A stretch of DNA of 64,000 nucleotides, from the IMG/VR virus record IMGVR_UViG_3300032227_000993; one strand, 5' to 3'. The notes beneath the pieces were generated by a model. That model was not told the origin of the DNA, made no database searches, and was given only the letters and a program-made list of their open reading frames with translations. Shown piece after piece: positions 16,432 through 20,639 of this stretch (within the stretch, counting starts at the first letter, position 1; each line of letters begins with the position of its first letter). The translations under genes were made by a program, and so were the position numbers. The DNA comes from a virus. Taxonomy: Duplodnaviria; Caudoviricetes.

Positions 16432-18531
16432 TTAAGATGCTCTCTGTTTAGCTTCACGCTCACCAGTTTTTACCTCAGAAGCGGCTTGTCTAATAGGTGC
16501 TGCTATCTTAACGGCTGCTTCTTTGCTGATGCCCGGTTTGGCATCTGATGGTTTGACAGCGTTTGGATCTTTGGGCCCTTCTACCACTGGCAGGCCGTTT
16601 TGAGCCGCTGCGATTGGAGTAAGCGGTCTACTTGATATGGCCGCTGCCATGTTTGCTCGCTTGGCAGCCGAACCTTCAAGTTCACTGGCATTAGGACGCT
16701 CAACATACTTGGCAAAGTAGTAGGCTGATTTGGCCACATTGCCAGCACCTTCTTCCATGGCCTTTTTAAACTGCTTGGCTTCGTATCCGTTGTCGTCTTT
16801 TAATTCTTTCTTGATAAAATCTAACTGTGTACCTTCATCGGTCCACTCAGTACCACGTTGTTTGGCATAGGCCTTGAGAGCATCTTTGCGAGCTCCAGTC
16901 CATTGCATCAATCCTGATGCGCCACTGGCTAGATTTATTGCTCCAGTTTTAAATGCTGACTCAGCGTACAAGTTGCCAGCAATGGCCGCTGATTCGGTTT
17001 CAGAAAAACCACGAGACTGTAATTTTGAGGCAATGTCAGCGCCACGAGCAGTTTGGTCAGCGGCTACACCAGTGCCAGTGGCCGCCGCAGCTGCCTTGTA
17101 TCCGGCTTGTTCTTGGTTTCTTTTTTGTCGTTCAGTTCCACCAGTAAACAAAGACATAGGATGCAACACAGTATCTACTAAATCAGCAAGAGCTTCAATA
17201 CCTTCTGAAACTGGTAATATTCCTTTGTTTAATAAATTTTCAAACGCATCCCGCGATGACATTTGTGCTTGACGAGTTTTGGTAGCAGAATCTGTTAGTT
17301 TATCGGCTCCTGCGGCTTGAGCATTGGTTTGATTAGTAGCTTCTTGCATGGCTCTTAATACTTCGCCGTTGGCCTGATTAGATAATTTTTGTGTTTTGTT
17401 GTAGGCTAAAAATGTTTCGGTGTTGCCCATTAACGCTTGGCTTTTTCTCAGGCTATGAGTAGTTTCGGTAGCATCTGCCATAGATTGCATAAACTGATTC
17501 AGCGGCATTTTAGTATCTTTGGCCAGTTTATTGCTAATACCGCCAGTAGTCATAAACAATTTTTGACTTTCTTTGCCTTGCCCAATAAATCCAGAAACTT
17601 GATTGGCATAACCAATGGCAGCCTCTTTGTCATATTTTGCTAACGCATTGTATCTAGCCAGTTGATTTTCACGTTCTTCGGCATCCATACTGTCGAGTGC
17701 GGCATTGAACGAGTCAATGGCTAATGCTTCGTTGCGTTGCTTGGCCATGTCATCTGAACTTTGTCCAGTGAGCTTGCTCAACTTTGACATATTTTTTAAA
17801 TACTCGGCGGCGCCAATTTTTAAATCTTCGTCGGTCATTTTTCTTGAAGTGCCAAAGGCCGCTTGCTGACTCATGTAATCGCCAATGCCTTTATTCATGT
17901 CGTGGACACTATATCCCATGTTCATAAATTGACGTTGTAAATCAGTTGATTGAATACTATTTGCTACACCAGCCAATGCCTTGGCACCTTGACTAACAGT
18001 TCCAGAAAAATTTGAAAGGCTTACAGAATTTTGAGTGAGCAGAGCACTCATATCGCCTAGATCACTGATGCCGTATCCAAATTGTTTCAAGTTTGAATAT
18101 ATTTCAGTCATGCCACCGGCACCAGCGGCACCAATTTTTGCCAGGTCTTGATTGGCTTTGTAAAGAGCATCGGCTTGATCTGTGGCCGCTGTGACAAAAA
18201 ATGTCAGTACTTTGATAACAGCACCTATAGCTACACCAAGTGGTCCAAACTGCATGGCTGCCTTGGCTGCAGCATCAGCTCCTGCGTTTAATGATTTGTT
18301 AAAAACGGCAGAGCCTTGTTTGCCATTTTTTAATTCTTCAAATGTGCTTTTTACTGAGGTGCCTAGTTGTTGTAAGCTGGCATTTAGTTCTTGAGTGTAT
18401 CCTTGTACACCTTTGGCACAATCGTTAAGGCCATCTCTTAACTGTTTTGCGTTAATGTAACCTTTATCAAATTGTTCATACAAAAGTTTAGCTTGTGCTT
18501 GAACTTCATCAGGAGTCATAAAATCTGCCAT
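16432..18531 (-). CDS. Tape-measure-like protein B with phage tail lysozyme domain
   Basis: Ala/Gln-rich helical N-terminal two thirds; AAIAGNLYAESAF...GLMQWTGARK...QLDFIKKEL...KYVERP lysozyme-type motif. Confidence 0.75.
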   Translation of the reverse strand: MADFMTPDEVQAQAKLLYEQFDKGYINAKQLRDGLNDCAKGVQGYTQELNASLQQLGTSVKSTFEELKNGKQGSAVFNKSLNAGADAAAKAAMQFGPLGVAIGAVIKVLTFFVTAATDQADALYKANQDLAKIGAAGAGGMTEIYSNLKQFGYGISDLGDMSALLTQNSVSLSNFSGTVSQGAKALAGVANSIQSTDLQRQFMNMGYSVHDMNKGIGDYMSQQAAFGTSRKMTDEDLKIGAAEYLKNMSKLSKLTGQSSDDMAKQRNEALAIDSFNAALDSMDAEERENQLARYNALAKYDKEAAIGYANQVSGFIGQGKESQKLFMTTGGISNKLAKDTKMPLNQFMQSMADATETTHSLRKSQALMGNTETFLAYNKTQKLSNQANGEVLRAMQEATNQTNAQAAGADKLTDSATKTRQAQMSSRDAFENLLNKGILPVSEGIEALADLVDTVLHPMSLFTGGTERQKRNQEQAGYKAAAAATGTGVAADQTARGADIASKLQSRGFSETESAAIAGNLYAESAFKTGAINLASGASGLMQWTGARKDALKAYAKQRGTEWTDEGTQLDFIKKELKDDNGYEAKQFKKAMEEGAGNVAKSAYYFAKYVERPNASELEGSAAKRANMAAAISSRPLTPIAAAQNGLPVVEGPKDPNAVKPSDAKPGISKEAAVKIAAPIRQAASEVKTGEREAKQRAS

Positions 18532-18536
18532 GATTG

Positions 18537-20639
18537 TTAACTAGCCATTTGTTTTTGTGTTCTATTGCTATTTTGTATAGCAGACAACAAGTCGCGCAAC
18601 TCTGTTACAATAATTTCAGTTCCATCATTGTCATCACCCATCATAGTACCTGCCATGTTGGATGCCTGTACGCCTGCTGTTCCAGCTGCCGGCATACCAT
18701 TTTGTGCTGAGATTACACCGGTTGATTGACGACCATCCATTGGCACAATGGCTTCTGTGCCATGCAAAGTCAAGTTAGGCATATATCCAGAGTCTGGACC
18801 ACTTAAAATTGCTCCGTCTCTAGCAGATACTGCTGCGTGGAAGTGTCCAGCAGTGGCTTTTGAGCTTGGATTATTGTATTCGTCAATGACCAAGCTGGCG
18901 CCCATGCTCTTTATCATGGAGGAAATTTTTGCGCCTTCTTCCTTGGTTGGTTGTTTACCACCTACAGTAAAGTCAAGAGCCATACCTTTGGTATGTTCGC
19001 TAGTTGGTGCTTTTTCATTGTGCCAGGCATCGTTGAAACTTGAGAAGTAGTTGAAGCCTGGAATTTCTTTTTGTATTTTTTGTGCTAGTTCTAACAATTT
19101 AGGACTAAGTGGGGCTCCTTCTTTTTGTACGTCGCCGCCTTTTCTAATGTTTAGTCCTGCTGCTGTAAGATCACTAGCACTTTTACCCTGCATTGCGCCG
19201 CCGAGAGCAGCTGCAGCTTTGGCGGCTTCTTGTTCCTTGGCCTGCTGTCTTTTGCTTCCGCCAAATGGATGAACAATGGTATCAATAAGATCAGCAAGAC
19301 CTTCCATGGCCTCTGTAACAGGTAGAACCCCTTTTTGTATCAGATTCTCCATGCTGTCACGCGATGACATTTGTGCTTGACGAGTTTTGGTAGCGGTATC
19401 GGTTAGTTTATCAGCGCCTTCGGCTTGAGCATCAGTTTGATTTTTAGCTTCTTTGGCTGCTTTGAGAACTTCACCATTGGACTGGTTGGCTATTTTTTGT
19501 GTTTTGCCAAATGACAAATATGTGTCTGAGTTGCCTAGCAGAGCTTGACTTTTTCTTAAGGCATAAGTTGACTGAGTGGCATCAGCAAAACCTTGAGCAA
19601 ACTGATCAAGAGCCATGTCACTATCCTTGGCCAGTCTATTACTGATACCGCCAGTGGTCATCATTAATTGTTGACTCTGTTTGCCCATACCAACAAAGCC
19701 AGACACTTGATTAGCATAGCCAATAGCTGCGTCTTTGTCAAATTTGGCCAAGTAATTGTATCTAGCCAATTGATTTTCTCTTTGCTCGGCAGTCATGCCT
19801 TCTAAGGCCGCATTAAAGGAATCAATAGCAAGGGCCTCATCTCTCTGACTGGCCATTTCGTCGGCACTTTGTCCTGTGAGTTTGCTGAGTTCAGACATAT
19901 TTCTTAAATATGCTGCAGCGCCTTGTTTCAATTCTGCTTGATCTCTTTTCTGCGACATTCCAAACGCAGATTGCTGTGTCAAGTATGAGCCAATTCCTTT
20001 GTTGATATCATCAACGCTGTAGCCCATGTTCATAAATTGGCGTTGTAAATCACTCGAGTGGATACTCTTTGACACACCTGCCATGGCTTTGGCGCCTTGT
20101 GCTACTGTTCCATAAAAATTAGATAGTGCTACTGAATTCTGACCAATTGTCTTGCTCATGTCAGCAAGTTCACCTACTCCATATCCAAACTCTTTTAGGT
20201 TTGAATATATTTCAGTCATGCCTCCTGCGCCGGCGGCACCAATTTTTGCCAGGTCTTGATTGGCCTTGTAAAGAGCATCGGCTTGATCGTTTGCCGCTGT
20301 GACAAAAAAGGTCAGTACTTTGATAACAGCGCCAACTGCTACACCCAGTGGGCCAAACTGCATGGCTGCCTTGGCAGCTGCGTCGGCTCCAGAATTCAGC
20401 GCATCGTTAAAGACTGCCGAGCCTTGTTTACCGTTTTTTAAATCTTCTCCGAGCCTTTTAGCCGAAGTGCCCAGCTGTTTCATGCTGGCATTCATCTGTT
20501 CGGTAAAGCCGCGAACACCTTTGTTGCAGTCGTTTAACCCGTCGGCAAGTTGTTTCGCAGAAATATAACCTTTATCGTATTGTTCGTAAAGGAGTTTTGC
20601 CTGGGCCTGAATTTCGTCAGGGGTCATGAAATCTGCCAT
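18537..20639 (-). CDS. Tape-measure-like protein A with peptidase M15-like domain
   Basis: Paralogue of 16432-18531; C-terminal SSFND-WH...SEHTKGMALDF...GHFHA (H-x6-D...H zinc motif). Confidence 0.75.
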   Translation of the reverse strand: MADFMTPDEIQAQAKLLYEQYDKGYISAKQLADGLNDCNKGVRGFTEQMNASMKQLGTSAKRLGEDLKNGKQGSAVFNDALNSGADAAAKAAMQFGPLGVAVGAVIKVLTFFVTAANDQADALYKANQDLAKIGAAGAGGMTEIYSNLKEFGYGVGELADMSKTIGQNSVALSNFYGTVAQGAKAMAGVSKSIHSSDLQRQFMNMGYSVDDINKGIGSYLTQQSAFGMSQKRDQAELKQGAAAYLRNMSELSKLTGQSADEMASQRDEALAIDSFNAALEGMTAEQRENQLARYNYLAKFDKDAAIGYANQVSGFVGMGKQSQQLMMTTGGISNRLAKDSDMALDQFAQGFADATQSTYALRKSQALLGNSDTYLSFGKTQKIANQSNGEVLKAAKEAKNQTDAQAEGADKLTDTATKTRQAQMSSRDSMENLIQKGVLPVTEAMEGLADLIDTIVHPFGGSKRQQAKEQEAAKAAAALGGAMQGKSASDLTAAGLNIRKGGDVQKEGAPLSPKLLELAQKIQKEIPGFNYFSSFNDAWHNEKAPTSEHTKGMALDFTVGGKQPTKEEGAKISSMIKSMGASLVIDEYNNPSSKATAGHFHAAVSARDGAILSGPDSGYMPNLTLHGTEAIVPMDGRQSTGVISAQNGMPAAGTAGVQASNMAGTMMGDDNDGTEIIVTELRDLLSAIQNSNRTQKQMAS

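Follow-up and report, generated by a model that had tools for sequence, protein, structure and literature searches.

A phage tape measure is treated as a homomeric ruler encoded by a single gene. Versions with lytic domains are well known, among them the mycobacteriophage TM4 Tmp, T5 pb2 and those of Staphylococcus and Enterococcus phages (lytic transglycosylase or PF18013), and in phage phi29 the tail-tip enzyme gp13 joins a lysozyme-like and a metallopeptidase domain. Here we describe two tandem paralogous genes in the IMG/VR record IMGVR_UViG_3300032227_000993 (Duplodnaviria, Caudoviricetes), a 64,000-nucleotide (nt) stretch of DNA that we call the window. Gene A, the upstream copy (18537..20639, minus strand; protein P0001, 700 amino acids (aa)), encodes an N-terminal module (N module), a LAS/M15-like peptidase, a tape-measure C-terminal motif and a terminal helix; gene B, the downstream copy (16432..18531, minus strand; P0002, 699 aa), encodes an N module and a terminal helix with a Phage_lysozyme2 domain between them, and lacks the motif, GPxSGY..HGxE. 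Both resemble the hydrolase-bearing tape measures, which are likewise long helical tail proteins that combine a hydrophobic segment with a wall-degrading domain nearer the C-terminus; however, those are products of one gene, whereas the tandem paralogues described here have the N module in common and carry different enzymes. Likewise, the lysozyme and metallopeptidase that gp13 places at the tail tip (3csq/3csr) are the chemistries of B plus A, but gp13 is a single short-tail knob protein and the two activities here are carried by two paralogous long proteins. Tape measures with lytic domains are thus already known, and what is new is a conserved pair of paralogues with different wall enzymes; full-text literature searches returned no report of two paralogous tape-measure genes, only cases of "two tape measure chaperone" proteins (G/GT-type frameshifts). 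Our preferred reading, to which we give a probability of about 0.5, is that A and B are both functional tape-measure-type proteins, positional analogues of T4 gp29, that co-assemble and supply two enzymes per tail. Below, L-numbers denote loci and P-numbers proteins of the family.

The two proteins align over aa 1-475 with 349/475 identities (73%) and 89% positives (BLASTP, E = 0), and their last ~225 aa do not align, although their very ends match weakly (E 0.058). The all-helical N module, whose length is constant across the family, spans aa 1-460 in both (A, 19260..20639; B, 17152..18531; both minus strand), with 75% aa identity and a dN/dS of about 0.10 between the copies; identity reaches 75-95% in the likely bundle-forming region. 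At the nucleotide level the copies are ~70% identical and synonymous sites are saturated, and, judged from sequence, the similarity is far beyond chance and old. The original prediction had described two open reading frames (ORFs) of 700 and 699 aa at these coordinates with just this pattern of similarity, 5 nt apart and out of frame, and in all of these points it was correct; the spacer (18532..18536, minus strand), from the stop of A to the start of B, reads TAA-caatc-ATG. The equal length that it emphasized holds for the N module of ~460 aa and does not extend to the totals, which differ by up to 30 aa in orthologous pairs (693/723, 694/712, 702/700). As for its designation of the pair as tandem tape-measure paralogues, the two are true paralogues (73% over 475 aa), and we infer, as set out below, that they are very probably of the tape-measure type.

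The C-terminal domain of A (18816..19196, minus strand; aa 482-608) is predicted to be a LAS (M15/VanY/Hedgehog-type) zinc peptidase with the putative zinc ligands H549, D556, H599 and H601. These residues lie in SEHTKGMALD at aa 547-556, an instance of SxHxxGxAxD that includes H-x6-D, and in GHFH at aa 598-601 (HxH, 599-601); across 13 homologues, no variation is seen at the H, the D and the first of the two HxH histidines. In the AlphaFold2 model, aa 490-600 have a predicted local distance difference test score (pLDDT) above 90. Foldseek matched the domain to the VldE C-domain (9flk) with a probability of 1.0 and a TM-score, normalised to target length, of 0.55, and VIA gave Z scores of 9.1 for ShhN, 7.5 for VldE, 7.1 for the Streptomyces DD-peptidase 1lbu, 6.8 for Ply500 and 6.2 for VanX. 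Pfam returned no match at E <= 0.1 for A or for its close relative P0008; the precomputed annotation of the protein database places PF26571 on P0008, P0009, P0068 and P0069.

The corresponding domain of B (16636..17067, minus strand; aa 489-632) is predicted to be a Phage_lysozyme2 tail lysozyme. PF18013 covers aa 499-632 (85.6 bits, cut-off 28.2; 4.7e-24), the domain is all-alpha in the AlphaFold2 model, and the best solved match in VIA is the phi29 gp13 lysozyme-like domain 3csr (Z 9.7, 118 aligned residues, 22% identity). This domain also matches proteins annotated as tape measures in phages of Staphylococcus, Bacillus, Lactobacillus and Psychrobacillus. Its putative catalytic Glu524 stands in YAES, followed by GLMQW, and both motifs are kept in 6 orthologues; by analogy with lytic transglycosylases, we take E524 to be the catalytic residue. 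A sequence search of the PDB with the C-termini of A and B gave no match. Fold, motifs and PF18013 agree with the labels originally attached to the two domains, an M15-like peptidase and a tail lysozyme.

An A-type (LAS) and a B-type (PF18013) gene occur in the same order, between a gp26-like gene and the portal gene, in three further independent metagenome assemblies: L004 (JGI), L042 (ENA) and L043 (Logan), with spacers of 14, 5 and 2 nt, respectively. In a maximum-likelihood tree of the N modules, a 14-member clade divides into seven A-type and seven B-type sequences (support by the Shimodaira-Hasegawa-like approximate likelihood-ratio test, SH-aLRT, 90 and 97, respectively), and the sister pairs within the A half mirror those within the B half; the duplication is therefore older than the radiation of about seven lineages. 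The sister clade, L003 and L005, has a different pair, in which copy 1 bears a domain like the PF06737 transglycosylase of relatives and copy 2 a LAS domain. A single copy is present in the 16 relatives with enough flanking sequence (L006-L009, L012, L013 and ten IMG/VR loci), and among 28 IMG/VR loci two copies are present in just one, that on the L004 contig. Synonymous sites are saturated between paralogues and between orthologues (proportion of synonymous differences, pS, 0.67-0.82), the corresponding nonsynonymous value (pN) for the N module is 0.15-0.24, dN/dS is about 0.1 where calculable, and orthologous C domains are 56-59% identical. The saturated synonymous sites, the low dN/dS and the retained catalytic residues together indicate that both copies are functional and under purifying selection. 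We consider the chance that the pair is an assembly artefact, with strain variants collapsed in tandem, or a decaying duplicate or pseudogene, to be negligible. The worry is fair for a metagenomic contig, but we found nothing in its favour: the same arrangement recurs in four independent assemblies (the window and those from JGI, ENA and Logan), the copies are only ~70% identical in DNA and have unrelated C-terminal domains, both frames are intact, purifying selection is strong and the catalytic residues are conserved. The duplication is real, and the case named beforehand as fatal to the idea, two assembled strain variants, is ruled out by independent recurrence and by selection on both copies.

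Within this old divergence, one part of the N modules is more alike than the rest. At codons ~81-160 (A, 20160..20399; B, 18052-18291; both minus strand), the DNA identity between the window's A and B is 0.81-0.90, against 0.68-0.73 for each copy versus its L004 orthologue, and third-position identity between A and B is 0.73-0.77, against 0.33-0.57 elsewhere. A like pattern of raised identity between copies is found in L005 at codons ~260-420, and on the tree each paralogue of the L003/L005 clade clusters with its partner from the same genome (SH-aLRT 98-99). Such a pattern suggests that the tandem copies now and then undergo gene conversion, which would keep parts of their N modules nearly the same.

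Neither A nor B is preceded by a Shine-Dalgarno sequence (the capsid gene of the window has AGGAG), and the short spacer without such a sequence makes translational coupling of B to A likely. Between the two genes we found no minus-strand terminator-like site and no strong promoter-like site; on the proposal of one shared promoter, the evidence reaches this far and no further. Because of the 5-nt spacer and the missing intervening terminator, we propose that A and B are co-expressed, probably by co-transcription and translational coupling.

The case for the tape-measure type begins with position. The gp26-like baseplate-hub gene (20666..21517, plus strand; PF12322, with Pfam and PHROG matches) diverges from A and is a neighbour of the copies in every syntenic locus. 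In T4, gene 26 diverges from the cluster 51-27-28-29-48-54, in which gene 29 encodes the tape measure; with the gp26-like gene as their neighbour, A and B hold the hub/tape-measure position. T4 gp29 and the two proteins are further alike in size (590 vs 700 aa) and in having an internal hydrophobic segment. The window's baseplate genes include no other tape-measure candidate.

The predicted architecture points in the same direction. The layout of A and B is alike: ~460 aa of helices, a linker predicted with low confidence, the enzyme domain, a disordered stretch and, last, a terminal helix of 26-28 aa. The AlphaFold2 model of A has a mean pLDDT of 78.6, aa 1-480 of both models are all-alpha by DSSP, and the helix boundaries of the N module of B match those of A. 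Each protein has a hydrophobic, transmembrane-like segment at aa ~95-117 (A, 20289..20357; B, 18181..18249; both minus strand), with a Kyte-Doolittle mean of 2.1 over 19 residues (in A, from aa 98). The C-terminal motif of A, GAILSGPDSGYMPNLTLHGTEAIVP, lies within the disordered stretch (18738..18815, minus strand; aa 609-634). The terminal helices are placed by AlphaFold2 at aa 674-699 in A (18543..18620, minus strand), where the helix is conserved at the family C-terminus, and at aa 671-698 in B (16438..16521, minus strand).

The GPxSGY..HGxE motif is present in 26 of the 71 members of the first set and in the consensus of alignments of further family representatives. When the motif region of P0060 was searched by tblastn, the matches were almost only annotated tape measures, among them those of Salicola CGphi29 (3e-9), S-CBS4 (6e-6) and Pseudomonas nickie-like and SSU5-like phages, plus proteins of T4-like cyanophages; in the siphovirus tape measures, the motif lies within the last ~100 of about 1400 residues. 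Alignment of the family with the Salicola CGphi29 tape measure by hhalign gave 85.5% probability and an E value of 5.7e-6 over the motif and terminal helix; the C-terminal 85 aa of A are those aligned to the end of that protein. Foldseek against BFVD returned uncultured-phage homologues and an 845-aa Atu_ph07 protein, then many entries named tape measure or minor tail protein (E 1e-4 to 1e-2, probability about 1). Cryo-electron microscopy of the myovirus P7-1 revealed six tape-measure chains in the tube and, on the spike, a three-helix cork formed by their C-terminal helices (PMC13338283). By analogy, the terminal helix of A and B fits the role of these cork helices. Taking together position, architecture, the motif and fold matches and the PA5oct homologue described below, we consider that A and B are very probably tape-measure-type tail proteins.

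Several observations weigh against this reading and against co-assembly. No similarity to T4 gp29 was detected (no significant BLASTP match; hhalign probability 0.1%), and gp29 has neither an enzyme domain nor the GPxSGY..HGxE motif; T4 gp29 itself, however, diverges beyond about 25% identity within the Straboviridae, and as it is barely traceable in its own family the missing similarity is compatible with common ancestry. The N module matches no tape-measure family in Pfam or PHROG, hhalign of the family against the S-CBS4 tape measure and against S-PM2 p209 yielded nothing, and Foldseek against the PDB and a VIA-wide comparison, in which the N module was part of full-length models, gave only generic helical matches to it. 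In tblastn searches of A and B against phages the enzyme domains alone match, and megablast of the 4.2-kb region against GenBank phages found no match. A ruler in the tube lumen is expected to be one extended coil, whereas the model of A packs aa 120-420 into a compact bundle of short helices, at pLDDT >90. Family members range from ~600 to 1100 aa in total length, with an N module of constant size (450-490 aa). B lacks the tape-measure C-terminal motif, yet so do single-copy relatives such as P0052 (L008). Finally, paralogy, domain identities, conservation of the pair, purifying selection and synteny can be read from the sequences, whereas the tape-measure role, co-expression, co-assembly and site of action of A and B are inferred from them. 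A capsid-targeting propeptide of the T4 type (L/I-x-E near the N-terminus) was also sought; the one candidate, LYE (aa 17-19), shows no conservation in the family consensus.

The two genes belong to a family in which the enzyme is frequently exchanged. A word-index search with A recovered 85 homologues, nearly all about 700 aa long, and a profile of the N module matched 4810 representatives at the 50% clustering level, 1241 of them with E <= 1e-30; in nearly all members the N module ends at aa 450-490. Pfam analysis of the C-terminal parts of 130 family representatives assigned 37 to VanY, nine to GH19, eight to Glucosaminidase, five to Transglycosylase-like, four to Phage_lysozyme, three to Peptidase_M15_4, two each to Phage_lysozyme2 (PF18013, the B-type cassette) and Peptidase_M15_2, and one each to VgrG3-like C, Peptidase_M15_3 and GH46. 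Even nearly identical N modules are joined to different cassettes: P0063, whose locus has a single copy, carries GH19, P0064 an M15-like domain, and P0061, P0062 and P0065 another domain. The survey of domain swaps and copy number that had been suggested thus reveals at least eight wall-hydrolase families among the relatives, with pairs in two clades and a single copy in 16 relatives. A, with its LAS peptidase and motif, has the majority architecture, and B is a derived extra copy. In P0055 (1078 aa) and P0104 (944 aa), a GH19 domain is followed by a VanY-type peptidase in one chain; these proteins have the same N module and tail and would likewise deliver a glycosidase and a peptidase, but the two are fused rather than split over tandem genes. 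Since a glycan-cutter is combined with a peptide-cutter both in the duplicated clades and in the fused chains, the pairing appears to be a recurring solution. One member, P0025 (710 aa, LAS-type; L012:6001-8133), lies outside the hub/portal synteny, among ClpP-like, metallophosphatase and UvdE genes; this locus may be rearranged, or may come from a different kind of phage.

The spike of the window also differs from that of T4, in which the tail lysozyme is on gp5. The gp27/gp5-like spike or hub protein (39967..41481, plus strand; 504 aa) is matched by phrog_13211 over only the first 390 of 887 profile positions, and no lysozyme domain was detected in it (Pfam: only weak OB and beta-helix matches). 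Across 39967-43145 (plus strand), both the spike and the next protein, of 553 aa, are without a lysozyme domain, and the PHROG match covers only the gp5-type hub/OB part. The role of tail lysozyme may have shifted from the spike to the tape-measure paralogues.

On the basis of these comparisons, we propose how the pair arose and works. An old tandem duplication in the lineage was probably followed by replacement of a C-terminal enzyme cassette, giving a canonical A and a derived B. The two proteins would be made together from one coupled transcript; several tape-measure chains would occupy the tail lumen, with A and B mixed in the same tail, and such mixed bundles are the simplest outcome given that the N modules have the same length, are 75% identical and seem to have been homogenised in part by gene conversion. 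The spike would be the docking site of the C-terminal helices, with the enzyme domains at or near the hub, and after sheath contraction the tip would present peptide-cutting and glycan-cutting enzymes to the wall. A lysozyme-free spike would fit a role passing from gp5 to the tape measure, and the twin genes could be regarded as a two-chain version of the phi29 gp13 or fused GH19-VanY arrangement.

Other arrangements of the same two proteins have to be weighed against such free mixing. The bundle might be obligately mixed, e.g., of three A and three B chains, with A plugging or anchoring at the spike and B forming a second, non-equivalent set. We regard this as an unlikely option, proposed by analogy with P7-1, where only three of the six chains form the cork, and thus non-equivalent sets of chains already exist in a homomeric tail. 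If it were true, every virion would inject a defined pair of peptidase and lysozyme, the structure would be the first heteromeric tape measure, and the equal-length, partly homogenised N modules would be explained. That same feature of P7-1 can be turned to a different account, in which only A is the ruler and hub anchor and B is a tape-measure-derived accessory, either enzyme cargo in the lumen or hub or an assembly factor, with no part in setting tail length or plugging the tip. We doubt this account, to which the retention by A alone of the majority LAS and GPxSGY..HGxE architecture and the rarity of the PF18013 cassette (2/130 representatives) lend some weight, because the N module of B is equally conserved (dN/dS about 0.1), with the same length and helix pattern, and B retains the terminal helix; moreover, the motif-free P0052 is the single copy of its locus, and hence the motif is not required for the function of a sole copy.

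The original prediction offered, besides hetero-oligomeric rulers, two kinds of virion, homomeric in A or in B, with the same tail length and different wall enzymes, as host-range bet-hedging. N modules of the same length and the different chemistries of the two enzymes would suit such a scheme, but it is quite unlikely: spacers of 2-14 nt imply simultaneous synthesis in one cytoplasm, and pure homomers of modules that are 75% identical and, it seems, locally homogenised by gene conversion would need a discrimination mechanism, none of which is visible. Furthermore, the enzymes are fused in P0055/P0104 and in phi29 gp13, which indicates that the two activities act together and not as alternatives; the bet-hedging idea finds no specific support, and the recurring pairing of a glycan-cutter with a peptide-cutter fits cooperative digestion of the wall better. 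A more radical departure would deny the tape-measure role altogether. T7 gp16 is a head-internal protein that is ejected ahead of the DNA and digests the wall, and A and B might be ejected proteins of this type, or hub components without a ruler role. Their genes do lie directly upstream of a head block, with the T4-like portal gene (gp20; 14563..16392, minus strand; PF07230, 1.4e-101) directly downstream of B and followed on the same strand by genes for a prohead protease (S77), a scaffold-like protein and a gp23-type capsid protein; the lack of T4 gp29 or Pfam tape-measure similarity, the compact, globular, high-confidence prediction for the N module and the position of P0025 outside the hub/portal context are also in keeping with this idea. 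We nevertheless find it very improbable. The gp26-like gene is the invariant neighbour while the portal gene is not always adjacent, the Vibrio phage 2.275.O homologue stands beside a baseplate gene on the strand opposite to the portal gene, a genuine siphovirus tape measure ends in a probable homologue of the C-terminal tail, the BFVD fold matches are tape-measure and minor-tail proteins, no T4-type cleavage site is conserved near the N-terminus, and the baseplate genes of the window offer no alternative candidate.

A conserved pair with probable rulers of equal length and different enzymes asks whether a mixed bundle can fit in a tail lumen, where along the chain length is measured and how two wall-cutting chemistries are combined at the tail tip. 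The analysis further suggests what a very large family, so far without a name, probably is, and with it the tape-measure candidates PA5oct gp148 and Vibrio phage 2.275.O gp437. Because its members exchange virion-associated peptidoglycan hydrolases on a common scaffold, the family offers a natural library for work on how phage entry enzymes evolve by modules.

The capsid protein of the window shares 62-67% identity with its counterparts in Vibrio phage 2.275.O, PA5oct and Serratia phage BF, and in the protein database A and B are encoded on a contig of 361,177 bp; the source is thus an uncultured jumbo myovirus of ~361 kb in the distant-T4 group, related to PA5oct and Vibrio phage 2.275.O. Both of these cultured phages encode a distant homologue of the N module: PA5oct gp148 (EST35_0148, L002:6931-9327; 798 aa; BLASTP 9e-7, hhalign E 1.1e-5) and NVP2275O_437 of Vibrio phage 2.275.O (L001:4568-6427; BLASTP 7e-8). 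Each is a single copy that adjoins a gp26-like gene and is annotated as structural or hypothetical, not as a tape measure. In PHROGs, gp148 has no family and NVP2275O_437 only phrog_14121, a virion structural protein family; gp148 is flagged as a structural protein by electrospray ionization tandem mass spectrometry (ESI-MS/MS), a flag for detection in PA5oct virions. The tail of T4 is ~100 nm long. That of PA5oct measures 136 nm (PMC3936114), which for the 798 aa of gp148 corresponds to 1.70 Å per residue, about the same as for T4 gp29 (590 aa). No tape measure was annotated in the PA5oct omics paper; gp148 and NVP2275O_437 are probably the tape measures of their phages.

Two T4-like cyanophages have comparable genes. 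In S-PM2 (L011:3286-9131) and S-CAM1 (L046:939-6590), two large unannotated proteins are encoded between gp26/gp51 and gp5; the first of those in S-PM2 has a PF18013-like domain 50% identical to that of B, and in the second of those in S-CAM1 the GPxSGY..HGxE motif lies in the middle of the chain. Cyanomyoviruses may have their tape-measure or hub proteins here.

With regard to promoters in the window, the T4 late promoter TATAAATA was considered and set aside: its three copies do not lie close to A or B, and the count is not above chance. A CTAAATA-like box is found 8-25 nt upstream of the portal gene, a 72-aa gene and a 434-aa structural gene (in 16393-16431, 14536-14562 and 35230-35265, respectively), and there is none directly upstream of B. 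A gp55-like sigma factor is encoded at 34216-35151, and the box may be its late promoter.

Further baseplate genes along the window encode gp25-like and gp6-like proteins and a giant protein of 4922 aa. The ORF of the latter, which follows the gp6-like gene (47028-61796, plus strand), matches phrog_10938, a virion structural protein family (E 1.3e-297); giant baseplate or fibre proteins of this kind occur in Rak2/PA5oct-like phages. Genes of the homing-endonuclease type flank the structural block on either side, an HNH gene (9427-10200, minus strand) and a SegE-like GIY-YIG gene (23446-23874, minus strand); the HNH gene follows the capsid gene, and the SegE-like gene lies near the gp26-like gene, as a conserved neighbour in most related loci.

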